Source: a virus (lineage: Duplodnaviria; Heunggongvirae; Uroviricota; Caudoviricetes). Taken from it: DNA of 38,078 nt. Positions 3,684 to 28,802 of this stretch are shown piece after piece (the stretch's first letter is position 1; each line of letters opens with the position of its first letter). Made by a program: the position numbers and the translations under genes. The notes beneath the pieces were generated by a model. The model did no database searches. It saw only the letters and a list, made by a program, of their open reading frames with translations, and was not told the DNA's origin. The stretch is taken from IMG/VR virus record IMGVR_UViG_2561511241_000002; one strand, given 5' to 3'.

Positions 3684-3910
3684 TGGCTGATGCAATGGAT
3701 CTCGTACAGCTGCGCGTTGAAGAAGAACGCCAACGCCATATCCGTGCTGCCCGTTCCAAAACGCCGGGCGTGTCCCGCGTGCTTTGCGTTGAGTGTGAAG
3801 CGCCAATTCCGCCAGCACGCCGCCGTGCCATTCCTGGAGTGCAGCTTTGCATTACCTGCCAGGAAATCGTAGAGCTGAAAGGCAAACATTACAACGGAGG
3901 TGCTGTATGA
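3683..3910 (+). CDS. TraR/DksA-family C4 zinc-finger protein (75 aa)
   Basis: CVECEAPIPPARRRAIPGVQLCITCQE: C-x2-C ... C-x2-C zinc finger typical of phage TraR-like proteins. Confidence 0.7.
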   Translation: MADAMDLVQLRVEEERQRHIRAARSKTPGVSRVLCVECEAPIPPARRRAIPGVQLCITCQEIVELKGKHYNGGAV

Positions 3911-4761
3911 GCACCATCCTGAAATGGGCGGGTAATAAAACCGCCATTATGTCCGAACTGAAAAAATACCTTCCTGCTGGCCCGCGACTGGTTGAACCTT
4001 TCGCGGGTTCTTGTGCTGTGATGATGGCGACGGATTACCCCAGCTATCTGGTTGCGGATATTAATCCTGATTTAATCAACCTCTATAAAAAGATTGCCGC
4101 TGATTGCGAAGCGTTTATATCTCGTGCCAAAGTTTTATTTGAGGAAGCAAACAGTGAGCTGGCTTATTACAACATAAGACAGGAGTTTAATTACTCAACT
4201 GAAATTACTGATTTCATGAAGGCGATATATTTCCTGTATCTCAATCGTCACGGTTACCGTGGTTTATGTCGCTATAACAAGAGCGGGCATTTCAACATTC
4301 CCTACGGTAATTATAAAAATCCGTATTTCCCTGAAAAAGAAATTCGCGCATTTGCAGAAAAAGCCCAGCGGGCAACGTTTATCTGCGCCAGCTTTGATGA
4401 AACGCTGGCGATGTTGAAGGCGGGGGATGTGGTGTATTGCGATCCGCCGTATGACGGTACGTTTTCCGGCTATCACACTGATGGTTTCACTGAAGATGAC
4501 CAGTATCACCTGGCATCCGTTCTTGAACATCGAGCATCTGAAGGACATCCGGTCATTGTTTCTAACAGTGACACGTCTTTGACCCGGTCTCTTTATCGTA
4601 ATTTCACTCACCACTACATCAGGGCGAAACGCAGCATCGGCGTTGCAGCGGGGGAGGGAAAATTTGCAACAGAGATGATTGCCACTAAATCTGCTAATTG
4701 GTTTAGTGCCGATTTTAGTAGGGGACGTGACTCTACTGTTATTTTCGGGGTGCAAGTGTGA
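3907..4761 (+). CDS. dam: DNA adenine methyltransferase (Dam-like, N6-A MTase)
   Basis: N-terminal [11 protein letters not shown]-binding motif and catalytic DPPY motif (CDPPYDGT); ATG 3907 overlaps the TraR-like stop (ATGA). Confidence 0.85.
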
Positions 4762-5588: not shown

Positions 5589-7960
5589 TGAACTACAGCT
5601 ATTCCTGGAATGCTGAGAAAAAAGCAATCAATCCTTACGTAGGGACAGAAGAGCAATCTTCAGTTTCTGCGCTTTCAAACCTGATCGCTCTGTACGCTGC
5701 CGATAACGAGCAGGAACACCTGCGCCGCGAGGTACTGAGTGATCAGGTCTGGGAGCGTTATTTCTTTAATGAATCCCGTGATCCTGTCCAGCGCGAAATG
5801 GAGCAGGATAAGCTCATTAGTCGGGCAAAGCTGGCGCATGAGCAGCAGCGTTTTAATCCAGATATGGTCATTCTGGCGGACGTCAATGCCCAGCCTTCCC
5901 ATATCAGCAAGCCGCTGATGCAACGTATTGAATACTTCAGCAGCCTGGGCAGGCCAAAGGCTTATTCCCGCTATTTGCGTGAGACGATTAAGCCATGTCT
6001 GGAACGACTGGAGCATGTACGCGACAGTCAGCTATCCGCTTCTTTTCGCTTTATGGCAAGCCATGAAGGGCTGGATGGCCTGCTTATCCTGCCTGAAATG
6101 AGTCAGGATCAGGTGAAGCGCCTGTCTACCCTTGTCGCTGCGCATATGAGCATGTGCCTTGATGCAGCTTGTGGTGATTTGTATGCCACCGATGACGTTA
6201 AGCCAGAAGAAATCCGCAAGACATGGGAAAAGGTGGCAGCGGAAACCCTGCGTCTGGATGTTATCCCGCCTGCGTTTGAGCAACTCCGTCGGAAAAGAAA
6301 CCGCCGTAAACCCGTGCCCTATGAACTCATTCCGGGTTCGCTGGCGCGTATGTTGTGCGCCGACTGGTGGTACCGGAAATTATGGAAGATGCGTTGCGAA
6401 TGGCGGGAAGAGCAGTTGCGCGCTGTCTGCCTGGTCAGCAAAAAAGCATCTCCTTATGTCAGCTATGAAGCCGTGATGCATAAACGTGAGCAGCGCCGTA
6501 AGTCGCTGGAGTTTTTCCGTTCTCATGAACTGGTGAACGAAGACGGCGACACGCTGGACATGGAGGATGTGGTAAACGCCAGCAGCAGCAACCCTGCGCA
6601 TCGCCGCAATGAGATGATGGCCTGTGTTAAAGGTCTGGAGCTTATCGCGGAAATGCGCGGTGACTGCGCCGTTTTCTACACCATCACCTGTCCGTCACGT
6701 TTCCATTCCACGCTAAATAACGGCAGGCCCAACCCAACCTGGACAAATGCGACGGTAAGACAAAGTAGTGATTACCTGGTCGGCATGTTTGCTGCATTTC
6801 GTAAGGCGATGCACAAAGCCGGATTGCGCTGGTATGGCGTGCGGGTGGCTGAGCCGCATCATGACGGTACAGTTCACTGGCACCTGTTGTGTTTTATGCG
6901 CAAAAAAGACCGCCGCGCCATCACTGCATTACTGCGTAAGTTTGCCATCCGTGAAGACCGCGAGGAGCTGGGCAATAACACTGGGCCGCGCTTTAAGTCT
7001 GAGTTGATTAACCCGCGCAAAGGTACGCCAACAAGCTACATCGCGAAATACATCAGTAAGAACATTGACGGGCGTGGTCTGGCTGGCGAGATCAGCAAGG
7101 AAACGGGGAAATCCCTGCGTGATAATGCTGAATACGTTAATGCCTGGGCGTCTCTGCATCGTGTTCAGCAATTCCGCTTCTTTGGCATTCCGGGGCGTCA
7201 GGCTTACCGTGAACTGCGATTGCTGGCTGGTCAGGCGGCAAGGCAACAGGGGGACAAAAAAGCAGGTGCGCCGGTACTGGATAACCCGCGCCTTGATGCA
7301 ATCCTGGCTGCTGCTGATGCTGGTTGTTTTGCCACCTACATCATGAAGCAGGGCGGCGTACTGGTTCCCCGCAAATATCACCTGATCAGAACCGCTTATG
7401 AAATCAACGAAGAGCCGACCGCCTATGGCGATCACGGCATTCGTATTTATGGCATCTGGTCACCCATTGCAGAGGGCAAGATCTGCACTCATGCAGTGAA
7501 GTGGAAAATGGTTCGTAAGGCCGTTGACGTTCAGGAGGCGGCAGCCGACCAGGGCGCTTGCGCCCCTTGGACTCGTGGCAATAACTGTCCCCTTGCTGAA
7601 AATTTGTACCAACAAGGGAAAGACAAATCAGCTGATGGGGATACCAGAACGGATATCACCCGCATGGATGACAAGGAATTGCACGATTACCTGCACAGTA
7701 TGAACAAAAAAGAGCGCCGGGAACTGGCTGCAAGGTTACGCCTGGTGAAACCGAAACGGCGTAGAGACTACAAACAGCGAATTACAGATCATCAGCGACA
7801 GCAGCTCGTCTATGAACTGAAGTCCAGAGGATTTGATGGCAGCGAGAAAGAGGTCGATTTACTCCTTCGCGGTGGCAGTATTCCGTCAGGAGCAGGCCTG
7901 CGTATCTTCTATCGGAACCAGCGTTTGCAGGAAGATGATAAGTGGCGGGATCTGTATTAA
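5588..7960 (+). CDS. A: replication initiation endonuclease (P2 gpA family, rolling-circle)
   Basis: 790 aa; HUH-like motif VHWHLLCF and paired active-site tyrosines in [10 protein letters not shown] as in P2 A. Confidence 0.9.
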
Positions 7961-8586: not shown

Positions 8587-9000
8587 GGTTGAACAACGAG
8601 CCGCGTGAGGCGTTAGAAACGGGTAGTGAAAAGTGATTTAAGAATGCCTTGTTCCCCTGAAACTTTGGCCTATGCAACAACATTCGACAGCTTTCTTGAT
8701 TATCATAAGTAACTTGAAGTTTAGGGACGATTCTGATGGTATACGTGAAAAATGTATCGTGTGTTGCTTTGGCAAAAAGGAGTTTTAGTGGACAACGGCT
8801 CAATCACCTTCTTTGATATTACTGCTTGTGGGTTTTATCGTTTAAAGAATAAACCCGAAGAGCTTGATTATAAATTCGGCGATCTTATGGGGGTTTTGGA
8901 CGATTTAGAAGGGTGACTCAAGGATAAAAATTTTGAGCAGACTCTCCCATGGAATAAAGAAGAACAACCTCTGCGAACACGAGTTTACAGTCGAGGCCTT

Positions 9001-9951
9001 GTGAGGGACAGCCAGACTAAAGATGCAGTAATTGTTTTATACCGTGAAGTGGGGAACGGTAACGGAATACATGGTATTAAGGTCGGTTCTAAAGTAAGTG
9101 GTGATAGTAAAGGAACCATTAGGGCGGGAAGAGAACATGGTGAGGATAAAATAATTTGGGGTGAACCCTGCTATTACTGGATTATTCCTGAGTTGAATAA
9201 AATAGCATCAATCAGATTCCCCCATTCTTTCGCTGATACTTATCTCTTCGCACAATACTTCATTCAGCATGTAAATAATAATAGTAAGTTAGGTAAAAGA
9301 ACGAAATCTAAGCGTACATTTGAATCAGCTAAGACCCCTGGTCGTTGTGTGGATGTCTACAATACTAAGTTTCAATATAAAGATGGCAAAAATGAGATAA
9401 ACTGTATCTTCAAGTTTGTATTGGAAGAAACAAAACTTAAAGCCGCTGAGGAAAACTTTGAAAGGTTAAGGCATAAAATTACACACACATTGATAAAGGA
9501 TACAACGGTAATAAACCAAAATGACACAAGGCAACCATTGTTGAAGCTAACAAGTGTAGCTTTAGCATCTCTGGTGGGTGAAGAAAAGCGTAATAAGCTT
9601 ATTGGGGCACCTCCTGTTTTGGAGCAGCCTCGTAAAATTGAAGTTAAAATTGACGGTGCACCATCATCGGATGAGCTTCGAAATCTCTTCTCAATGAGAG
9701 GTGAAGAGTCTGAATGGGATGTGGGTTTTTTACTGGCTGATCGTGCTAATCCGGTTTGGCTCAGTAGCTATGTAGCCAGGACTAAACTTCCTCTTCAAGA
9801 TTCGGATGGGTTTGAGCATTATTCAGCGCGTTTTTTACTGGATGAAATAAACAAAATTCGTGATGATTTGATTAGTGAAGTAAAATATGCTGAGGAAGCA
9901 TCCATTAAAGAATCTGAAGCTGCATCCACAAAAAAGATAGCGGAAGGTTGA
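9001..9951 (+). CDS. uncharacterised cargo protein (316 aa from GTG 9001), first gene of two-gene operon; frame stays open upstream to 8752/8788 apart from one in-frame TGA at 8914
   Basis: AT-rich ORF; stop overlaps the next gene start (TGATATG). Upstream in-frame segment carries a strong SD (AAGGAG, 5 nt before GTG 8788). Candidate Rx4-6H element in ERLRHKITH (weak). Confidence 0.6.
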   Translation: MRDSQTKDAVIVLYREVGNGNGIHGIKVGSKVSGDSKGTIRAGREHGEDKIIWGEPCYYWIIPELNKIASIRFPHSFADTYLFAQYFIQHVNNNSKLGKRTKSKRTFESAKTPGRCVDVYNTKFQYKDGKNEINCIFKFVLEETKLKAAEENFERLRHKITHTLIKDTTVINQNDTRQPLLKLTSVALASLVGEEKRNKLIGAPPVLEQPRKIEVKIDGAPSSDELRNLFSMRGEESEWDVGFLLADRANPVWLSSYVARTKLPLQDSDGFEHYSARFLLDEINKIRDDLISEVKYAEEASIKESEAASTKKIAEG

Positions 9952-9952
9952 T

Positions 9953-10489
9953 ATGACAGAAACGGAAGGTTTGATAATAACAGTTGCAAAACAGCAGGCG
10001 ATTAATTTTGTTGCTGTTGTTTTGTGCTGCGTTATAAGCTATTTTTCGTTCAAAAGTTTTTCCTATAATGATGCAAAAGATATTTTAGGTGCGCTTATAA
10101 ATATTTCAGCATCTATATTCACTATTGTCGGTTTATGGGTCGGTTTTTTATATCCGAATGCAATGAATAGTATTGTTAAGGATGATGTAAGTTATATAAA
10201 AAATGAGCATGACTCACCAAGAATAGAGAAATTAGTTTATACAATAATCACATCTGCTTGTGTTATGGCTGGGATTCTAATTTTCTTTTTGGTTAAGGCA
10301 GTGTTTTATGCATTACCTGTTTATCAAGCTAATAAAGACTTGTTTAAATACATTGGTATTTTCTTCATTTACTTTATTAGCTGGATGCAATTAAAATGCG
10401 TTATGAGCCTGATTTTGAGTAATTTACATTTTGTTAATCACTTACATGGACGTTTAGCAAAAGCGAAATTAGAACACTATGATGAATAA
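9953..10489 (+). CDS. small integral membrane protein with four predicted TM helices (178 aa)
   Basis: Four hydrophobic segments (INFVAVVLCCVISYFSF, ILGALINISASIFTIVGLWVGFLY, LVYTIITSACVMAGILIFFLV, YIGIFFIYFISWMQL); translationally coupled to the upstream gene. Confidence 0.7.
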   Translation: MTETEGLIITVAKQQAINFVAVVLCCVISYFSFKSFSYNDAKDILGALINISASIFTIVGLWVGFLYPNAMNSIVKDDVSYIKNEHDSPRIEKLVYTIITSACVMAGILIFFLVKAVFYALPVYQANKDLFKYIGIFFIYFISWMQLKCVMSLILSNLHFVNHLHGRLAKAKLEHYDE

Positions 10490-10633
10490 AGTGTTCGTAT
10501 TGGCAGGAGTTACTGTGGATGTTTAACCTCAACAAGAGTAAGCCTCCTTTAACATGGGAATCACCGTTCTAACAAGCTTTGCATGTCTATGCTGCATGAA
10601 TCCGCATGATCGTTTTAGGATCGTTTTTGCTGA

Positions 10634-10658
10634 GGCCCGCCAGAACTGGCGGGCTTTT
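10634..10658. terminator. GC-rich hairpin with flanking T/A runs (bidirectional intrinsic terminator)
   Basis: GGCCCGCCAG-aa-CTGGCGGGC followed by TTTT; T-run also on the other side. Confidence 0.55.
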
Positions 10659-10702
10659 GCTTATGTCATGCACCTGCATGAAAACCACTACATAAAGCGG
10701 GC

Positions 10703-10721
10703 AGGCGTGGCGGGGATACGA
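10703..10721. other. candidate cos cohesive-end core (P2/186-like)
   Basis: GGCGTGGCGGGGATACGAG: first 13 nt identical to the 186 cohesive end as I recall it (GGCGTGGCGGGGAAAGCAT), 15/19 overall; sits in a GC-richer non-coding stretch between two AT-rich cargo blocks. Confidence 0.3.
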
Positions 10722-10856
10722 GCGCGCTCTGATATGAAAATCTGAACAAAAAATTACAAAATGGTATCTTTTTGTTGCTATCATCATTTTTGATGGTAAC
10801 TTAACCTTTTCAGTTTCTATATTATAAAATTCTATCCAGAAGAAGGAATTTGTTTC

Positions 10857-12638
10857 ATGGCTGAACTATTACCGCAAACAACTTCTATACAAACTATTTA
10901 TTCATGGTTTACTGAAGGTAAGATATTTGTTAATAGACGTTATCAACGAAAATTAGTTTGGACTGCAATAGAGAAACAAAAATTAATTGAATCCATTCAA
11001 AAAAAATATCCAATTCCTGCAGTTCTTCTCGCGGAAAGGGAAAATGATCCTGGCACATATGAAATAATTGATGGCCTACAAAGATTACATGCAATAATGT
11101 CTTTCATCGAAACAGGATATGAATCACTTGATGGAAAACGTTTTAATCTGGACGCTTTTCCCACAGCGAAAAATCGAGCGGATGAAGGTAAGTTTGTTGC
11201 AGTGAAAGCTGATAATCTTTTAAGTCAGCGTGAGGTTACTCAGTTATTGGATTATTCTCTTGCAATGTCCATTATGCGTAATGCGACTGAGAACGAAATA
11301 AATGATGTTTTTGATAGAATTAATACATACGGGCATAGACTTAGTGATCAAGAAAGGCGCCAGGCTGGTATACAAAATAAATTTTCAAATATGGTTAGGG
11401 ATATTGCCTGTTCTATCAGGGGGGATGTATCTGACGACATATTGCTTTTAGAGCAAATGCCGTCTATTAGCATTGATTTGCCACTAACTAAACATGGTTA
11501 CCAAATTCAGTCGGAAGAAGTATTTTGGGTAAAACATGGGATCTTACGTTCAACAGACCTTCGTGACAGTATGGATGAGCAATGCATTGCAGATATAGCA
11601 GCTTGTATTGTTGGAGGTAAGTTAATAGATCGTTCCAAAGATGCGCTTGATCAGATTTATAATAATGAAGATGAAGAGTATAGTCGTATTAGCTCTGCTA
11701 TTAATGTTTATGGTGAAGGAAAATTTGCAGAAGAGTTTAAATTCTGCATCCAGGAAATAACAAAAGTATGTAATAGTGACGGTGAAATTAAACTCAGGGA
11801 TTTAATCTTTACTAAACGTACTACAAATGCTTTCCCAGCCATATTTGCTGTGTTATTTATTGCTTTTCATGAATTACTCATTAAAGAAAATAAGAAGATT
11901 AATAATTATAAAGGTGTAAAAGACAATCTTAATAATATAGTCACTCGACTAGATACTAAAAGATCTGCTACTGGTGGGGAAGAGAGAAGAAAGAATATTA
12001 ATTCTATCATAGGCTTGATTAAAGATAACTTTATTGATAGCGCCGATAGCAGTCATATCTATAATTCTCACAATACGGTGGATATTGAGGATATTTTACG
12101 AAGATCTGAAATAGAGCTTGCAAATTATGAACTGAAACAGGGTTTGTTGATGTTAGGCGGAGAGCGAACTATTGATGATGGCATTCATGAGAAAATATTC
12201 TCCACAATTTGTGCTATTGCTAACATCGGTAAAGGTAACAAGAACGGTGTAGTTGGTAAGTTATTGCTTGGTGTAACAGATAAACCAAGTGATACAAGTA
12301 GAGTAAAAGAGCTTGATGATATAGATGCACATGTAGTTGGTGAGAGAAGTGTTGTTGGTGTTAAAAGAGAAGCTATTAAACTCGGCATATCAATGGAAGA
12401 ATATTATAGACGTTTTTGCGATGAGTTGAAAAAATCTGCTTTGAGTGAGCCTCTTAAATCACAAGTGGTGAGTTTGATTGACTATAATGACTTTTATGGT
12501 TATGGAGTTATAGTTATTACAATTCCACTTCTAGCATCTTATTCTAGTTATGATGGGGATATTTATTATCGTGCTGGCGATAATACCGTAAAAGCAACAG
12601 TTATCGAAGCAGCAGATATTGCAACACGTTTTAAATGA
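10857..12638 (+). CDS. DUF262 (ParB/GmrS-like N-terminal domain) protein, 593 aa, C-terminal region unassigned
   Basis: N-terminal RRYQRKLVWTAIEKQKLIESI and EIIDGLQRLHAI match the DUF262 signature (FQR..vW...Q..LIdS; IIDGQQR); no H-x-x-P His-Me finger (DUF1524) motif seen in the C-terminal half. Very AT-rich. Confidence 0.8.
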   Translation: MAELLPQTTSIQTIYSWFTEGKIFVNRRYQRKLVWTAIEKQKLIESIQKKYPIPAVLLAERENDPGTYEIIDGLQRLHAIMSFIETGYESLDGKRFNLDAFPTAKNRADEGKFVAVKADNLLSQREVTQLLDYSLAMSIMRNATENEINDVFDRINTYGHRLSDQERRQAGIQNKFSNMVRDIACSIRGDVSDDILLLEQMPSISIDLPLTKHGYQIQSEEVFWVKHGILRSTDLRDSMDEQCIADIAACIVGGKLIDRSKDALDQIYNNEDEEYSRISSAINVYGEGKFAEEFKFCIQEITKVCNSDGEIKLRDLIFTKRTTNAFPAIFAVLFIAFHELLIKENKKINNYKGVKDNLNNIVTRLDTKRSATGGEERRKNINSIIGLIKDNFIDSADSSHIYNSHNTVDIEDILRRSEIELANYELKQGLLMLGGERTIDDGIHEKIFSTICAIANIGKGNKNGVVGKLLLGVTDKPSDTSRVKELDDIDAHVVGERSVVGVKREAIKLGISMEEYYRRFCDELKKSALSEPLKSQVVSLIDYNDFYGYGVIVITIPLLASYSSYDGDIYYRAGDNTVKATVIEAADIATRFK

Positions 12639-21488: not shown

Positions 21489-22067
21489 ATGAACGCACAA
21501 TTAACCGAAATCATGCGCCTTATCACCAACCTGATTCGCACAGGGGTAGTCACCGAAGTGGACAGGGAAAACTGGCTTTGCCGGGTGAAAACGGGCGAGC
21601 TTGAAACCAACTGGATTAGCTGGCTGACGCTGCGTGCCGGGAATGCCCGCACATGGTGGCGACCATCGGAAGGTGAGCAGGTGGTGCTGCTGAGTCTGGG
21701 CGGCAATCTGGAAACCGCCTTTGCGCTGCCCGCTGTCTATTCGAATCAGTTCGCACCACCGTCGACGTCGGCGGACGCCTGCGTGACAGAACATCCTGAC
21801 GGTGGCTGGTTTGAATACGAACCCGCCACCGGGCGCTGGTATGTCAGGGGCATCAAATCAATGGTCATTGAGGCCGCTGACAACATCACCATGAAAACCA
21901 GTGAGTTTGTACTGGAGGCTGACCGCACGCGCATTAACAGCGAAGTGGTGATCAATGGTGGCGTTACCCAGGGCGGCGGAGCGATGAGTTCTAACGGGAT
22001 CGTGGTTGATGCGCATCAGCATACTGGCGTCCTGAAAGGCGGCGATACAACCGGAGGCCCGGTATGA
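21489..22067 (+). CDS. V: baseplate spike/assembly protein V
   Basis: N-terminal IRTGVVTEVD...RVKTGELETNWISWLTLRAG parallels P2 gpV. Confidence 0.85.
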   Translation: MNAQLTEIMRLITNLIRTGVVTEVDRENWLCRVKTGELETNWISWLTLRAGNARTWWRPSEGEQVVLLSLGGNLETAFALPAVYSNQFAPPSTSADACVTEHPDGGWFEYEPATGRWYVRGIKSMVIEAADNITMKTSEFVLEADRTRINSEVVINGGVTQGGGAMSSNGIVVDAHQHTGVLKGGDTTGGPV

Positions 22068-22423: not shown

Positions 22424-23318
22424 CCTTTCGCAGTTGCCTGCGCCGCAGATTGTCGATGTGCCGGACTTTGAGACGCTGCTTGCCGAACGCAAGGCCGAAT
22501 TTGTTGTGCTTCATCCGAAAGATGAGCAGGAAGCCGTGATCCGCACGCTGGAACTGGAATCTGAACCCGTCACCAAATTGCTGCAGGAGAACGCTTACCG
22601 TGAGTTGCTTCTGCGCCAGCGCATTAACGAAGCCGCGCAGGCTGTGATGGTGGCTTACGCGATGGGCGGCGATCTTGACCAGCTCGCTGCCAACTACAAC
22701 GTGAAACGCCTGACGGTGACGCCTGCTGATAATGACGCTGTGCCACCCGTTGCGGCTGTGATGGAAAGCGATGAAGCGTTACGCCTGCGTGTGCCTGCAG
22801 CCTTTGAAGGGCTTTCTGTTGCGGGGCCAACTGCCGCTTATGAATTTCATGCCCGAAGCGCCGACGGTCGGGTGGCGGATGCCAGTGCAACCAGTCCGGC
22901 ACCTGCAGAGGTGGTACTGACTGTCCTGAGTCGTGAAGGCGACGGAACAGCAGAAAAAGACTTGCTGGATGTGGTGGAGAAAGCCCTGAACAGTGAGAAC
23001 GTCCGCCCGGTGGCTGACCGTCTGACGGTTCGCAGCGCAGAAATCATCCCGTACCGTGTGGAAGCTACCATTTTTCTTTATCCGGGACCGGAAGCAGAGC
23101 CGGTAATGGCAGCGGCAAAAGTCAGCCTGCAGAGGTACATCGCCAGTCAGACGCGGCTCGGTCGGGATATTCGCCGTAGTGCTATTTTTGCCGCGCTGCA
23201 TGTTGAGGGTGTTCAACGTGTGGAGCTGGCTTCACCGCTGGCTGATGTGGTCCTGAACAAAACGCAGGCGGCATCATGTACGCAGTGGAGCGTGACCAAC
23301 GGGGGAACGGATGAATAG
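22410..23318 (+). CDS. J: baseplate protein J
   Basis: ATG 22410 after AGGAGCAGAGA; 302 aa as in P2. Confidence 0.85.
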   Translation: MAVIDLSQLPAPQIVDVPDFETLLAERKAEFVVLHPKDEQEAVIRTLELESEPVTKLLQENAYRELLLRQRINEAAQAVMVAYAMGGDLDQLAANYNVKRLTVTPADNDAVPPVAAVMESDEALRLRVPAAFEGLSVAGPTAAYEFHARSADGRVADASATSPAPAEVVLTVLSREGDGTAEKDLLDVVEKALNSENVRPVADRLTVRSAEIIPYRVEATIFLYPGPEAEPVMAAAKVSLQRYIASQTRLGRDIRRSAIFAALHVEGVQRVELASPLADVVLNKTQAASCTQWSVTNGGTDE

Positions 23319-23916
23319 TCTGCTGCCACCGGGTTCAACGCCACTGGAGCGCCGACTGGCGCAAACCTGTAGCGGGATTTCTGATCTGCAGGTGTCACTG
23401 CGTGACTTGTGGAATCCGGCAACCTGTCCGGTCAGTTTCCTGCCTTATCTCGCCTGGGCGTTCTCTGTGGATCGCTGGGACGAGGGCTGGACAGAAAGCG
23501 TCAAACGCCAGGTAGTGAAGGATGCTTTTTATATTCATCAGCACAAAGGAACCACCAGTGCCGTACGGCGGGTGGTGGAGCCGTTCGGCTTCCTGATCCG
23601 CATTATTGAGTGGTGGCAGACCGGAGAAACACCGGGCACGTTTCGTCTGGACATTGGTGTGCAGGACCAGGGCATCACTGAAGATACCTATCTGGAACTT
23701 GAGCGACTGATAAGCGATGCCAAACCATGTAGCCGTCACATGATCGGCATGTCCATCAATCTGCAGACCAGCGGCCCGCATTGGGTGGGAGCCGCCAGTT
23801 ATCTTGGCGAAGAAATCACGATCTATCCGTATATCAACGAAACAATTATTTCCGGCGGCACCGCGCATGAAGGCGGGGCGGTCCATGTTATTGACACAAT
23901 GAGAGTGAATCCATGA
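23311..23916 (+). CDS. I: baseplate/tail fibre attachment protein I
   Basis: 201 aa, position between J and H. Confidence 0.8.
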   Translation: MNSLLPPGSTPLERRLAQTCSGISDLQVSLRDLWNPATCPVSFLPYLAWAFSVDRWDEGWTESVKRQVVKDAFYIHQHKGTTSAVRRVVEPFGFLIRIIEWWQTGETPGTFRLDIGVQDQGITEDTYLELERLISDAKPCSRHMIGMSINLQTSGPHWVGAASYLGEEITIYPYINETIISGGTAHEGGAVHVIDTMRVNP

Positions 23917-25442
23917 GCACAAAATTTTATACCCTGCTGACGGATATTGGCGCGGCGAAACTTGCCAGCGCCGCCGCGCTCGGTGTGCCGCTAAAAATTA
24001 CCCATATGGCGGTGGGCGATGGCGGCGGAGCATTGCCGACGCCGGACGCAAAGCAGACTGCACTGGTAAATGAGAAACGCCGGGCTGCGCTGAATATGCT
24101 CTATATCGACCCGCAGAACAGCAGCCAGATTATTGCTGAACAGGTGATCCCTGAAAATGAGGGTGGTTGGTGGATACGTGAAGTGGGTCTGTTTGATGAG
24201 TCCGGGGCATTGATTGCCGTAGGCAACTGCCCGGAAAGCTATAAGCCGCAACTGGCTGAAGGCAGCGGGCGCACCCAGACCGTGCGCATGGTGTTGATTA
24301 CCAGCAGCACGGACAATATCACCCTGAAAATCGACCCTGCCGTCGTGCTGGCAACCCGCAAGTATGTGGATGACAAGGTACTGGAGCTGAAGGTGTTCGT
24401 GGATGATAAGATGGCAAAACATCTTGCCGCACCGGACCCGCATTCACAGTATGCACCCAAAGAAAGCCCGACATTGACCGGAACACCCAAAGCGCCAACG
24501 CCAGCGGAGGGGAATAACACCACGCAGATTGCGACCACCGCGTTTGTTCAGGCGGCACTGATGGCCCTTATTAATGGTGCGCCAGCCACACTGGATACGC
24601 TGAAAGAAATTGCCGCTGCCATTAATAATGACCCGAAATTCAGTACCACTATTAACAATGCGCTGGCACTGAAAGCGCCGCTGTCAAGTCCGGCACTCAC
24701 CGGAACGCCAACAGCCCCCACTGCCGCACAGTCGGTTAACAATACACAGATTGCCACTACGGCTTTTGTGAAATCGGCGATTGCGGCAATGGTGGGTTCT
24801 GCACCTGCGGCACTGGATACACTGAACGAACTGGCGGCGGCGCTGGGGAATGACCCGAACTTTGCCACGACAATGCTTAATGCACTGGCAGGTAAACAAC
24901 CGCTGGACAATACGCTGACTAATTTGAGTGGAAAGGATGTAGCTGGTCTTCTCGCATACCTTGGTTTGGGAGAAGGTTCTGCATTACCTGTTGGTGTGCC
25001 TGTTCCATGGCCTTCAGCCACACCGCCAACAGGCTGGCTGAAATGCAACGGTGCGGCTTTTTCTGCTGAAGAATACCCGGAACTGGCAAAGGCTTATCCG
25101 ACAAATAAATTGCCTGATTTACGTGGTGAGTTTATTCGTGGCTGGGATGACGGGCGCGGTATTGATGCAGGACGTGTTTTATTGAGCATTCAGACAGGGA
25201 TGCTGGAAAAGCACCGTCATCCTGTTGTCGCCAACGATGGGTATGACTCAAAAGAGGTATGGGAACTGGCGGCAATCTTCAGAAGAGCATATACACAGGG
25301 CAAGGGACTGGATGGTACCAGTGCAGGCGGAACTTTGATTCCATCACCAACGCTACATACACGAGGGAGTGTCGGTAATACTGGCGGGAGTGAAACCCGT
25401 CCACGAAATATTGCATTTAACTTTATCGTGAGGGCTGCATAA
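23913..25442 (+). CDS. H: tail fibre protein H (current orientation of variable C-terminus)
   Basis: Conserved N-terminus MSTKFYTLLTDIGAAKLASAAALGVPL; C-terminal part lies inside the invertible segment. Confidence 0.85.
   Translation: MSTKFYTLLTDIGAAKLASAAALGVPLKITHMAVGDGGGALPTPDAKQTALVNEKRRAALNMLYIDPQNSSQIIAEQVIPENEGGWWIREVGLFDESGALIAVGNCPESYKPQLAEGSGRTQTVRMVLITSSTDNITLKIDPAVVLATRKYVDDKVLELKVFVDDKMAKHLAAPDPHSQYAPKESPTLTGTPKAPTPAEGNNTTQIATTAFVQAALMALINGAPATLDTLKEIAAAINNDPKFSTTINNALALKAPLSSPALTGTPTAPTAAQSVNNTQIATTAFVKSAIAAMVGSAPAALDTLNELAAALGNDPNFATTMLNALAGKQPLDNTLTNLSGKDVAGLLAYLGLGEGSALPVGVPVPWPSATPPTGWLKCNGAAFSAEEYPELAKAYPTNKLPDLRGEFIRGWDDGRGIDAGRVLLSIQTGMLEKHRHPVVANDGYDSKEVWELAAIFRRAYTQGKGLDGTSAGGTLIPSPTLHTRGSVGNTGGSETRPRNIAFNFIVRAA
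24470..24915 (+). repeat. tandem duplication (about 2 x 75 codons) inside H
   Basis: Protein repeats ...LTGTPxAPT...NNTQIATTAFV...APAxLDTLxExAAAxxNDPxF... occur twice in succession. Confidence 0.5.
24949..24974. promoter_or_regulatory. hix/gix-like 26-bp invertase crossover site inside H
   Basis: TTCTCGCATACCTTGGTTTGGGAGAA versus hixL TTCTTGAAAACCAAGGTTTTTGATAA; an inverted copy of TTGGTTTGGGAGAAG occurs at 26836-26850. Confidence 0.55.
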
Positions 25443-26044
25443 TGGATAACGCCGTATTAAATAGCGAGCTTATTGCCACGAAGGCGGGGAATATTACAGT
25501 CTATAACTATGATGGTAAAACTCGGGAATATATTTCTACTTCAAATGAATATCTTGCCATTGGTGTCGGTATCCCTGCATATTCCTGTTTAGATGCCCCT
25601 GGCACACATAAGGCTGGTTATGCAATCTGCCGTTCTGCAGATTTTAACTCATGGGAATATGTGCCAGATCATCGCGGTGAAACGGTCTATAGCACCGAAA
25701 CAGGAGAATCAAAAGAAATCACCGCTCCGGGTGATTACCCTGAAAATACAACCACTATCGCCCCATTAACGCCATACGATAAATGGGATGGTGAGAAATG
25801 GGTGACGGATACCGAGACACAGCATAGCGCCGCAGTAGATGCAGCAGAAGCACAGCGCCAGTCGCTGATTGATACTGCAATGGCTTCCATCAGTCTGATT
25901 CAACTGAAATTGCAGGCCGGACGTAAACTGACGCAGGCAGAAACAACCCGACTTAACGCTGTGCTGGATTACATTGACGCGGTGACGGCAACAGATACCA
26001 GCACCGCGCCGGATGTCATCTGGCCTGAACTGCCGGAGGCGTAG
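25442..26044 (+). CDS. G: tail fibre assembly chaperone G
   Basis: 200 aa; C-terminal DYIDAVTATDTSTAPDVIWPELP motif shared with the inverted paralogue. Confidence 0.8.
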   Translation: MDNAVLNSELIATKAGNITVYNYDGKTREYISTSNEYLAIGVGIPAYSCLDAPGTHKAGYAICRSADFNSWEYVPDHRGETVYSTETGESKEITAPGDYPENTTTIAPLTPYDKWDGEKWVTDTETQHSAAVDAAEAQRQSLIDTAMASISLIQLKLQAGRKLTQAETTRLNAVLDYIDAVTATDTSTAPDVIWPELPEA

Positions 26045-26468
26045 GCCATTCAATATCTGGCGCACCGGAAGTATCGACCAGTTCCAGTGCGTCCAGGTAA
26101 TCCAGCCACAAATTATATTGCGCCAGTTCGTCACCTTTCAGACGACCAATAGCCGCTTTACCAGGCCATTGCTTACTGTTCATGTATTCGTTGGCCTGGT
26201 TAATTAGTAGCTGTCTTTCTGATTCAGTAATTTCAATAAGCTCTTCATGCGTGGGTGGAGGAATATCTGCCCACGCAGGCAGCCCATCATCTCCGGCAAT
26301 ACGGATTTTTCCTTGTGGCGGTTCAGCCATAAACTCACTGATAATATTTTGATTTACTTCCTTAGCGTCTGATAAATCCCATCCCTCTGATTTATATTTA
26401 TCAATCATATCCACAGGGAAAAAAGCATTATGCCTTGCGCTATAAACATATTCGTTCATATAAATCAC
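26016..26468 (-). CDS. alternative tail fibre assembly chaperone (G')
   Basis: 150 aa; C-terminal LWLDYLDALELVDTSGAPDIEWPTPP paralogous to G; 3' ends of G and G' overlap convergently. Confidence 0.7.
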   Translation of the reverse strand: MIYMNEYVYSARHNAFFPVDMIDKYKSEGWDLSDAKEVNQNIISEFMAEPPQGKIRIAGDDGLPAWADIPPPTHEELIEITESERQLLINQANEYMNSKQWPGKAAIGRLKGDELAQYNLWLDYLDALELVDTSGAPDIEWPTPPAVQAR

Positions 26469-26479
26469 CCTGAATAAAA

Positions 26480-26852
26480 TTACTCACCAACAGCCCACCA
26501 ACTGTAATTCATCGATACCGTGTCGCTGGTTGATGACGTTCTGTAAGCAGAATTAAAACCGGTTAATGTTGGGCCTTCTGCGGTCATCACGAATCCCCGC
26601 CCAGCACCTAAAGGCGCACCACCATCACCAGAATGAGTAAGCATGGCGCAGTCCACTTTTTTAGGAAAAGGGATGCTGAATGTAATTCTCATTGTTTGCG
26701 TCGATAATGTCGGCGTAACCGCACCACGACCATATTGCAGGATTTTCCCGTTGGGTAATTTCATCCATCCATCACCACTGGCAAAAGAGGCCATGTCCGG
26801 TATCTGATTTTCCCCTGTCCCTACATCCCGTTTTGCCGCTTCTCCCAAACCA
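26480..26852 (-). CDS. alternative tail-fibre C-terminal cassette (H'), in frame with the hix site, would replace the current H C-terminus after inversion
   Basis: Minus-strand frame reads ...VGLGEAAKRDVGTGENQIPD... through the hix-like repeat in the same phase as H (...YLGLGEGSA...). Confidence 0.6.
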
Positions 26853-26865
26853 ACGTTTAAGAAAA
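26840..26865. promoter_or_regulatory. second hix/gix-like crossover site
   Basis: TTCTCCCAAACCAACGTTTAAGAAAA; left half is the reverse complement of GGTTTGGGAGAA found at 24963-24974. Confidence 0.5.
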
Positions 26866-26914
26866 TGCAGCGATTACGACTAACTGGCATCATCCCCGAT
26901 TTTTATTCAAGGAG

Positions 26915-27487
26915 ATGATCATGCTTATTGGCTATGTACGCGTGTCAACAAATGACCAGAACACCGATTTGCAACGTAGTGCGCTGAACTGCGCGGGATG
27001 TGAGCGGATTTTTGAGGATAAAATCAGTGGCACTAAGTCCGACAGACCGGGGCTGAAAAAACTGCTCAGGACACTATCGGCAGGAGACACGCTGGTTGTC
27101 TGGAAGCTGGACAGGTTGGGGCGCAGTATGCGGCATCTTGTTACGCTGATAGAAGAGTTGCGCCAGTGTGGCGTGAATTTCCGAAGCCTGACTGACAGTA
27201 TTGATACCAGCACCCCAATGGGCCGTTTCTTTTTTCATGTCATGGGGGCCCTGGCTGAAATGGAACGCGAACTGATAGTTGAACGTACCAGGGCGGGGCT
27301 GGCTGCAGCTCGTGCTAAAGGCAGAGTAGGTGGACGCCGTCCTAAGTTGACCACCGAACAGTGGGCACAGATTGGACGTTTACTCGAGGCCGGAGAATCA
27401 AGACAGCGTATTGCACTGATTTTTGATGTGGGTGTTTCCACAATTTATAGAAAATTTCCGGCAAATAAGAGCAATGAATCCCCCTGA
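26915..27487 (+). CDS. Hin/Gin/Pin-family serine DNA invertase
   Basis: MLIGYVRVSTNDQNTDLQR...VVWKLDRLGRSM...SPMGRFFFHVMGALAEMEREL, near-identical in pattern to e14 Pin; catalytic Ser in YVRVST. Confidence 0.9.
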   Translation: MIMLIGYVRVSTNDQNTDLQRSALNCAGCERIFEDKISGTKSDRPGLKKLLRTLSAGDTLVVWKLDRLGRSMRHLVTLIEELRQCGVNFRSLTDSIDTSTPMGRFFFHVMGALAEMERELIVERTRAGLAAARAKGRVGGRRPKLTTEQWAQIGRLLEAGESRQRIALIFDVGVSTIYRKFPANKSNESP

Positions 27488-27535
27488 ATCAGCATTATGT
27501 TGATTATCCCTGCAAGCAGACAAATACCGTCATTT

Positions 27536-27553
27536 TGTATGAATAACGGTACA
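27536..27553. promoter_or_regulatory. P2-type late promoter activator site (TGT-N12-ACA) upstream of FI
   Basis: TGTATGAATAACGGTACA. Confidence 0.5.
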
Positions 27554-27629
27554 ACTGCGCTTAGCTGTTTGTCAGGCACAATCACTTCAACATAGGGCGA
27601 AGCCTAATCCAATCAGGAGGTTCGCCACT

Positions 27630-28802
27630 ATGGCTCAGGATTACCACCACGGGGTGCGCGTTGTTGAAGTCAACGAAGGCACCCGATCCATTACCACGGT
27701 GAGCACCGCCATCGTGGGTATGGTCTGCACGGGCGATGATGCCGATGCAAAAATGTTTCCTCTTAATAAACCCGTGCTGATCACTGATGTGCTGACTGCC
27801 AGCGGTAAAGCGGGTGAGTCCGGCACGCTGGCCCGTTCGCTGGATGCCATCGCTGACCAGGCAAAACCCGTGACCGTTGTTGTGCGTGTGCCGCAGGGTG
27901 AAACGGAAGAAGAAACCACGACCAATATCATCGGCGCAGTGACTGCTGAAGGTAAAAAAACAGGCATGAAAGCCCTGTTATCTGCCCAGACACAGCTCGG
28001 CGTTAAACCGCGCATTCTCGGCGTGCCAGGTCACGATAACAAAGCCGTTGCTACTGAGTTGCTGAGTGTGGCGCAAAGCCTGCGTGGGTTTGCTTACCTG
28101 TCAGCGTATGGCTGCAAGACGGTGCAGGAGGCGATCACTTACCGTGAAAACTTCAGCCAGCGCGAAGGAATGCTGATCTGGCCCGACTTTACTGGCTGGG
28201 ACACGGTGCTGAATGCCGAAGCAACGGCATATGCCACCGCCCGTGCGCTTGGTCTGCGTGCCAAAATTGATGAGCAGACTGGGTGGCACAAAAGCCTGTC
28301 CAACGTGGGCGTGAACGGTGTCACCGGAATTTCTGCAGATGTGTTCTGGGATCTGCAGGACCCGGCAACCGATGCAGGTCTGCTGAACCAGAACGACGTC
28401 ACCACGCTTGTGCGTAAAGACGGTTTCCGCTTCTGGGGTTCCCGCTGCCTGAGTGATGACCCGCTCTTTGCCTTCGAAAACTACACCCGCACGGCGCAGG
28501 TGCTGACGGACACAATGGCAGAAGCGCACATGTGGGCAGTGGACAAACCGCTGAACCCGTCGCTGGCGCGCGACATTATCGAGGGCATCCGCGCCAAAAT
28601 GCGCAGCCTGGTCAGTCAGGGGTATCTCATTGGTGGTGATTGCTGGCTGGACGAGTCGGTGAACGACAAAGACACTCTGAAAGCCGGAAAACTCACCATC
28701 GACTACGACTACACGCCAGTGCCGCCACTTGAAAACCTGATGTTGCGTCAGCGCATCACCGATCAGTACCTGGTGAATTTCGCCAGCCAGGTCAGCGCGT
28801 AA
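27630..28802 (+). CDS. FI: tail sheath protein FI
   Basis: 390 aa, position and size as P2 FI. Confidence 0.9.

Follow-up and report, generated by a model that had tools for sequence, protein, structure and literature searches.

Inversion systems of the Din family (Hin/Gin/Cin/Pin-type) have been described in several phages and prophages. The G segment of phage Mu, with the invertase Gin, and the C segment of phages P1 and P7, with the invertase Cin, contain 26-bp inverted sites. In both, the crossover is located in the fibre gene between Sc and Sv, the variable modules are Sv/U and Sv'/U', the invertase gene lies beside one site, and an enhancer is found at the 5' end of that gene. A cis-acting enhancer bound by Fis, mostly inside the 5' end of the invertase gene, is common to the Din family. 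The P segment of e14, a cryptic lambdoid prophage of Escherichia coli K-12, has the invertase PinE. In enteropathogenic E. coli (EPEC) E2348/69, coexisting orientations in two P2-like prophages were shown by sequencing and were read as tail-fibre switching (Goldberg et al. 2014, PMC4272514). A cassette of this kind is described here in the virus record IMGVR_UViG_2561511241_000002, a stretch of 38,078 nucleotides from a member of the Caudoviricetes. The whole stretch is referred to as the window, and positions are counted from its first nucleotide.

The cassette extends from the tail fibre gene H to an invertase gene and is very probably a Din-family inversion switch by which the fibre of an apparently intact P2-like (Peduoviridae) prophage receives one or the other of two receptor-binding tips. 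It was proposed by an earlier model-made reading of the letters and open reading frames, without database searches, called here the sequence-only reading.

Recombination sites, fibre modules, and invertase

The top inverted repeat found by the repeat finder between positions 22000 and 29000 pairs 24949-24975 with 26839-26865. The repeat is 27 nucleotides in length and 81% complementary, with its arms 1,863 nucleotides apart. When the 38-kb window was scanned with the hix/gix consensus TTCTCNNAAACCNNGGTTTNNGAGAA, allowing up to three mismatches, 24949-24974 and 26840-26865 were the only matches, and 100 dinucleotide-preserving shuffles of the window gave none. The left site (24949-24974, + strand) is pix/gix-like, lies within H, and has the sequence TTCTCGCATACC-TT-GGTTTGGGAGAA with the core at 24961-24962. 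The right site (26840-26865, + strand) has the sequence TTCTCCCAAACC-AA-CGTTTAAGAAAA with the core at 26852-26853, and is located 55 bp upstream of the invertase start codon. The TT of the left core and the AA of the right core are complementary, and the sites are therefore inverted with the same 2-bp core. Their inner half-sites are identical to each other. Two 26-bp sites with imperfect dyad symmetry, in inverted orientation and with identical cores, are what distinguishes the sites of the Din family. The two inverted hix/gix-like sites named by the sequence-only reading are thus borne out by the repeat finder, the consensus scan, and the complementary cores.

In sequence and position, the sites agree with the pix sites of e14 and with those of related P2-like phages; with the Mu gix sites, the agreement is one of consensus and position. 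The right site has one mismatch to the e14 right pix site, TTCTCCCAAACCAACGTTTATGAAAA. The left site has the same inner half-site and core as the e14 left site, and is identical over its whole length to the left site of the P2-like phage record from strain T22.

A third site, as in the shufflon of EPEC, was considered and rejected. The full-site consensus with up to three mismatches and the 14-nucleotide shared core plus half-site with up to two mismatches each found the two known sites alone. The chaperone genes G and G' contain an 18-nucleotide inverted repeat (25963-25980 and 26089-26106), which was also rejected as a third recombination site. This repeat exists because both genes code for a similar C-terminal motif (…LDYIDAV… and …WLDYLDAL…).

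The invertible segment (24961-26853) is 1,893 bp in length from core to core. Gene H (23913-25442, + strand) has 509 codons as it stands in the window and contains a Phage_tail_fib N-terminal domain and a Collar domain. Its constant N-terminal part, Hc (23913-24960, + strand), comprises approximately 349 codons. It is not part of the invertible segment, and the tip to which it is joined depends on which of the two faces it. The Pfam match of Hc to the Phage_tail_fib N-terminal domain, typical of a P2-type fibre, has an E value of 3e-65, and Hc is 80-83% identical to H of the T22 P2-like phage and of Fels-2. The tip fused to Hc in the window, Hv (24963-25442, + strand), is 159 amino acids in length and is the tip expressed in this orientation. 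It matches the Pfam Collar domain (E = 4e-15) and a PHROG family of tail collar fibre proteins, and its identity to the C-terminal end of e14 StfE is 61%. The tail-fibre assembly chaperone cognate to Hv, G (25442-26044, + strand), is a TfaE-like protein of 200 amino acids with a Caudo_TAP domain (E = 1e-32) and is 93% identical to e14 TfaE.

The second module is on the opposite strand. The alternative chaperone G' (26016-26459, - strand) is 147 amino acids in length and is a coding sequence in RefSeq. It contains a Caudo_TAP domain (E = 2e-30; in the Pfam assignment the reading frame is given as 26016-26468), and is 98.6% identical to ORF32 of phage pro483 and 54% identical to e14 TfaP. G and G' are convergent, and their 3' ends overlap by 29 nucleotides (26016-26044). 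The silent alternative tip, H'v (26480-26851, - strand), is 123 amino acids in length counted from a shared Gly-Leu-Gly-Glu (GLGE) and contains a Gp53-like_C domain (E = 4e-13). The open reading frame called mechanically on this strand (26480-26893) reads upstream through the right site, and its stretch upstream of GLGE is no genuine N-terminus. Pfam and PHROGs agree for all five cassette genes, and the two modules of tip plus chaperone that the sequence-only reading had drawn on opposite strands within about 1.9 kb are confirmed by these domains. Collar and gp53-like_C are two tip families, and their domain content is consistent with tips that use differing receptors.

The reading frames are continuous across the left site in either orientation. 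The codons GGT TTG GGA GAA (24963-24974) are in the H frame on the + strand (…AYL GLGE GSALP…), and the same codons on the - strand are in frame with the open reading frame ending at 26480 (…NV GLGE AAKRD…). In-silico inversion of 24961-26853 gives an uninterrupted H::H' protein of 473 amino acids, which is the in-frame fusion through these shared codons that had been predicted. Both fibre products are therefore open, with 509 amino acids in the window state and 473 in the flipped state. The locus has the layout of a fibre cassette, with a site within the fibre gene, a constant part in frame with either variable part, and a chaperone of its own directly downstream of each tip, the two modules being on opposite strands.

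The shaft of H (approximately 24465-24960, residues 185 to 350 or so) contains a tandem duplication of a unit of about 74 amino acids (SPTLTGTP…ALALKAP and SPALTGTP…ALAGKQP). Both copies align to a single copy in the Fels-2 and pro483 fibres (residues 185-276 there), and the length of the fibre shaft therefore varies among these phages.

The invertase gene (26921-27487, + strand) codes for a Din-family serine DNA invertase of 188 amino acids. The start is at 26921, as in RefSeq (188 amino acids), rather than at 26915, and aligns with residue 1 of Gin. The protein contains the Pfam domains Resolvase (E = 2e-52) and HTH_7 (E = 2e-15), belongs to the PHROG 'DNA invertase' family, and can be aligned end to end with crystallised Mu Gin (3UJ3 and 4M6F; E = 4e-91) along its residues 1-184. 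It is 85.6% identical to e14 PinE, its closest relative among the classical systems, and the sequence-only reading was right to call it nearly Pin-like. Identity to the other invertases is 85.2% for Fels-2, 84.8% for pro483, 78% for P1 Cin, and 73.5% for Mu Gin. The nucleophile Ser9, together with Tyr5, Arg7, Asp33, and the arginines of the DRLGRS motif, is identical to Gin. Fis/enhancer-dependent invertases are set apart from resolvases by basic residues at Hin positions 47, 48, and 51 and by Gln151, Arg154, and Leu155, which in Hin itself are K47, R48, K51, Q151, R154, and L155 (McLean et al., PMC3798978). At the equivalent positions, with an offset of -1 as in Gin, the window invertase has K46, K47, R50, Q150, R153, and L154. 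It is a small serine recombinase with the catalytic serine, a C-terminal helix-turn-helix, and the Fis/enhancer-specific residues, as is characteristic of the Din family.

Orientation in other genomes and the state of the switch

Public data supply three independent lines of evidence that the cassette flips. Orientation was counted in complete E. coli genomes with window positions 24400-27600 as the query and a coverage of at least 80% on one strand as the threshold. The window orientation was found in 54 genomes and the in-silico flipped orientation in 44. A genome in the opposite orientation covers at most approximately 59% of the query on one strand, and the two counts therefore represent two populations that are similar in size.

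The clearest comparison is between GPEC1040 and GPEC1366, two chicken isolates from one study, which carry the same prophage next to ssrA and differ in it essentially by the inversion alone. The 12.6 kb to the left of the segment are 99.98% identical between the two genomes, and the 12.8 kb to the right are 100% identical. The middle 1,914 nucleotides are 99.95% identical but inverted. The 26-bp sites, neither of which differs between the genomes, contain the alignment breakpoints. This pattern is the signature of conservative site-specific inversion. The sequence-only reading had staked its case on the occurrence of more than a single orientation, and both occur, in the 54 and 44 genomes and in this near-isogenic pair.

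The flipped state is also found in phage pro483, where the segment is on the opposite strand relative to the flanks. The last 123 residues of the full-length fused pro483 fibre are identical to the silent tip of the window (123/123), and the G'-like ORF32 follows the fused gene. The fusion product predicted for the window therefore exists.

At least part of the 3.2-kb query is present in 3,066 of 5,426 complete E. coli genomes, with a median of 2 matching places per genome, and the chromosome of E. coli ETEC4085 (NZ_CP122634.1) has 4 such places. Whole or partial Din-type cassettes are thus very frequent, and one cell may harbour several, between which cross-reaction may occur.

The 5' end of the invertase gene probably contains a Fis-dependent recombinational enhancer (26939-27006, + strand), a putative assignment based on position and conservation. 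The first 120 nucleotides of the gene align without gaps with the pinE, gin, cin, Fels-2, and pro483 genes. In the phage P7 record, nucleotides 19-86 of cin are annotated as a putative enhancer, and 26939-27006 is their counterpart in the window, with gap-free identities of 54/68 to cin, 49/68 to gin, and 59/68 to pinE. Of the six genes, five have G-N13-C 15-mers both at gene nucleotides 22-36 and at 71-85, and the sixth, P7 cin, has the second one alone. Approximately 30 nucleotides upstream of the start codon is the sequence TGGCAT.AT, which is conserved in all six aligned relatives and may, as a conjecture, be the -10 region of the invertase gene. A scan of 24800-27700 for promoters and terminators gave counts that were not above those of shuffles, and is uninformative.

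For the window's own strain, we infer an active and Fis-dependent switch, a change in the receptors used, and a host-range consequence of a certain size, along the following lines. The 188-amino-acid invertase would bind as dimers to the two inverted 26-bp sites and would probably be activated, by analogy with Gin and Hin, by host Fis on an enhancer within the first 90 or so nucleotides of its gene. Cleavage would take place at the 2-bp cores (TT at 24961-24962 and AA at 26852-26853), and strand exchange by subunit rotation would invert the 1,893 bp. Hc would be transcribed with the P2 late baseplate genes. Because the left site is inside H and both inner half-sites code for an in-frame Gly-Leu-Gly-Glu, Hc would be fused to one of two tips. 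In the window state this would be the Collar-domain tip followed by the TfaE-like chaperone G, for a fibre of 509 amino acids, and in the flipped state the gp53-like tip followed by the chaperone G', for a fibre of 473 amino acids. The arm facing away would have no upstream late promoter and would be silent. Inversion during lysogenic growth would create a mixed population, and induction would then release virions with two adsorption specificities.

Several observations weigh against a working switch in this particular prophage. The evidence for flipping comes from homologous cassettes, and the window prophage itself is seen in one orientation. The three closest genomes, which are at least 97.7% identical, are all in the window orientation. 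The invertase is 97.9% identical to that of GPEC1040 and GPEC1366, whose cassette has demonstrably flipped, but differs from it at four residues (window to GPEC: S20N, R29Q, C83R, and S185I). The two candidate Fis cores start 49 nucleotides apart, and the second is G/C-rich in its centre; it is for this spacing and composition that we only infer Fis dependence. The consensus scan of 24800-27700 called no sigma-70 promoter for the invertase.

The main rival explanation builds on these observations. It holds that the locus is a former inversion system, now inactive because of amino-acid changes in the invertase, poor or absent invertase expression, or decay of the enhancer, and that the H'/G' arm is a relic. 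This would account for the single orientation in the window and its three closest relatives, for the four amino-acid differences from the nearest homologue with a recent inversion (including Cys83 where the relatives have Arg), and for an invertase gene with no promoter called upstream. Decayed versions of the cassette are known from related records, such as the T22 'P2' record with its frameshifted invertase of 164 amino acids. We nevertheless consider a frozen switch unlikely. The invertase open reading frame is full length, with all catalytic and Fis-contact residues present, and both sites are intact, with identical cores and identical inner half-sites. The silent tip and chaperone are intact as well, and are 100% and 98.6% identical to those expressed in pro483. 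An intact and near-identical silent arm is evidence against relaxed selection.

Two further explanations give the cassette a role in the lysogen. Members of the Din invertase family are, as is generally known, interchangeable in trans, which would favour such a role. One explanation, to which we assign a rather small probability, is a dual role in which the cassette is a host-range switch of the phage and also a phase-variable asset of the lysogen. The invertase could act in trans on other Din-type cassettes of the chromosome, where ETEC4085 has 4 places that match the query, and so couple the switching of several prophages. The second way for a dual role to arise is suggested by e14, in which inversion of the P segment, driven by PinQ, creates StfE2, a protein that blocks T2 adsorption (PMC12529663). 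By the same route, an orientation-dependent chimera with the StfE-like tip, together with the TfaE-like chaperone, could leak in the lysogen and mask the receptors of T-even phages.

The other explanation is that the cassette is also, or mainly, a phase-variable anti-phage device of the lysogen, with the fibre-tip chimera masking outer-membrane receptors. This is conceivable because the expressed tip and its chaperone are StfE-like and TfaE-like, with the identities of 61% and 93% given above (compare e14 StfE2, PMC12529663). The tip is, however, just 61% identical to StfE, and the fibre gene belongs to the late baseplate operon of a P2-like prophage that appears complete, an operon that by analogy with P2 is silent in lysogens. 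A gene from the late operon of an intact prophage is an unlikely candidate for an anti-phage role, and as an account of this cassette we consider such a role very improbable.

One could also suppose that the inverted repeat lies by chance between two unrelated pairs of convergent genes, and that the resolvase-type recombinase has its target elsewhere, for example in dimer resolution or on a different element. Such an account could appeal to the general frequency of short inverted repeats and to the others in the region (14-25 nucleotides, 75-100% complementary), but is effectively refuted by the zero matches of the site pattern in shuffles, by the agreement of the sites with those of e14 (pix) and related P2-like phages and with the Mu gix consensus and position, by the natural inversion breakpoints that map to the sites, and by the reading frames that match across the core. 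The Din-family switch of the fibre tip is the reading we retain.

The prophage and its neighbouring genes

The neighbours of the cassette are those of a P2 tail module, with the baseplate genes J and I upstream and the sheath gene FI and tube gene FII downstream (Pfam matches include Tail_P2_I, Phage_tube FII, and the sheath family). The gene order in the window is that of P2: Q P / O N M L X, lysis, R S V W J I H G / FI FII E E' T U D ogr. From position 4400 to 38078, the window differs by four single bases from a P2-like prophage of E. coli ETEC4085 (pig, Belgium). This prophage lies beside ybjL, and RefSeq annotates it as a complete element of the P2 type that reaches from the replication genes as far as ogr. 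The placement of the invertase in the G-FI slot of a P2-type tail by the sequence-only reading agrees with the RefSeq annotation of this ETEC4085 locus. In phage P2, fun(Z) occupies the space from G to the pF activator site and FI, and the label 'Z/fun slot' is therefore correct.

The downstream edge of this slot contains a perfect TGT-N12-ACA dyad (27536-27553, + strand), located approximately 85 bp upstream of the FI start. The motif is one that we take, from the late promoters of P2, to be an activator site. The annotated pF activator site in P2 is 83 bp from the FI start codon, which is near the distance of the window dyad. When the spacer between the invertase gene and FI was compared with the P2 pF region by BLAST, nothing was found beyond matches of 7-8 nucleotides, and the assignment to pF is made because of the dyad and its distance to FI. 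The dyad is predicted to be an Ogr-type activator site, probably that of the late promoter of the F operon. With a probable late promoter at 27536-27553, the invertase gene sits between two late operons.

Three of the four single-base differences from ETEC4085 are at positions 6641 (in the replication endonuclease gene), 25498 (in G, synonymous, ACA versus ACC), and 32277 (in the tape-measure gene). The comparison suggests a very close relative or a different assembly as the source of the window. The fourth difference, at 8916 (A in the window, G in ETEC4085), is in an accessory region. This region (8788-12638, + strand) contains three genes between the replication/DinI-like genes and the portal gene, at the P2 'old/tin' cargo hotspot. 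The first two match a PADLOC candidate defence pair, PDC-M18A (E = 4e-31) and PDC-M18B (E = 3e-18). The third is annotated as a GmrSD-domain gene and matches NsnA (E = 8e-31). The base at 8916 changes Trp43 of the PDC-M18A-like gene (8788-9951) to a stop codon (TGG to TGA), and this candidate defence gene is therefore truncated in the window and intact in ETEC4085.

The GPEC prophages contain a gene with a reverse-transcriptase domain just past ogr (22797-23570 in locus L002 and 22798-23571 in locus L003), which is possibly a retron-type cargo. The window prophage is next to ybjL and lacks this gene; the GPEC prophage is next to ssrA.

The main value of the present description is in annotation. 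RefSeq labels for the cassette genes are generic ('recombinase family protein', 'gp53-like domain-containing protein', and 'phage tail protein'), and the invertible segment is unmarked. The silent tip is called as a free-standing gene in RefSeq, and assemblies of the same prophage differ by orientation, a difference that the switch explains. Two virion types are predicted in an induced lysate, which bears on host-range prediction for P2-like phages and on tailocin or phage engineering. No new question is opened, as the mechanism, the family, and the presence in P2-like prophages are all established.

Comparison with described systems

The Mu and P1/P7 systems share with the window the inverted 26-bp sites, the crossover within the fibre gene, the paired modules, the invertase gene beside one site, and the position of what is in the window a putative enhancer. 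They differ in segment length (approximately 3 kb in Mu and 4.2 kb in P1/P7), in tips that are unrelated by BLAST, and in the phage tail modules. P1/P7 also have the invertase on the opposite side, where cixL is located at the 3' end of cin. The EPEC prophages differ in that one locus has three inverted repeats and four variants, in the manner of a shufflon (PMC4272514), whereas the window has two sites.

In sequence, as judged from sites, proteins, and layout, the system closest to the window cassette is e14. The right sites are one nucleotide apart, the inner half-site and core of the left site are shared, and the close identity of G to TfaE and the lesser identity of the tip to StfE have been given above. 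The e14 segment is likewise about 1.8-1.9 kb in length, and the order of constant part, site, tip, tfa, tfa', tip', site, and invertase is the same. In e14, a defective element of the lambdoid type, the fibre gene is truncated (stfP/ycfK; stfE is annotated as a pseudogene), whereas the window contains a complete P2-type contractile-tail module. The second arm has also diverged, with G' at 54% identity to TfaP and a gp53-like tip that has no BLAST match to StfP.

Fels-2 of Salmonella Typhimurium LT2 (Peduoviridae, Felsduovirus) has the same order as the window, namely I, H, G, G', an H' fragment, DNA invertase, FI, and FII. Besides the invertase identity of 85.2%, the constant part of H is 83% identical over the first 259 residues, and the 26-bp sites are in equivalent places. 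Unlike in the window, the sites are about 2.7 kb apart, and the tips have no BLAST match to those of the window. The Fels-2 invertase was reportedly named Fin by Kutsukake and colleagues in 2006, as cited in PMC4272514, and is said to act on the flagellar H segment.

Further P2-like phages, namely pro483 (Peduovirus pro483), T22 'P2' (KC618326), 500465-1, Cartapus, and Klebsiella phage KP12, have this cassette or one closely similar to it, annotated in their records as tail fibre, assembly protein, and DNA invertase. The pro483 cassette differs from the window in its shorter fibre shaft, with one copy of the 74-amino-acid repeat, and its other tip is approximately 60% identical to the expressed tip of the window. 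The KC618326 record ('Escherichia phage P2' from O157:H43 T22) is named P2 though it is a distinct Peduovirus. Its two sites (3842-3867 and 5703-5728) are exact inverted copies of each other, and its invertase (5800-6294) is frameshifted, with 164 amino acids. The locus resembles a decayed form of the cassette described here, or a mis-assembled one.

The sequence-only reading had implied that the graft of such a switch onto a P2-type tail is new. This part does not stand, as Fels-2, pro483, and other Peduovirus records share the layout and inversion has been demonstrated by experiment in the EPEC prophages (PMC4272514). The finding is real and its interpretation correct, and both the kind of system and the context in which it occurs were known before.

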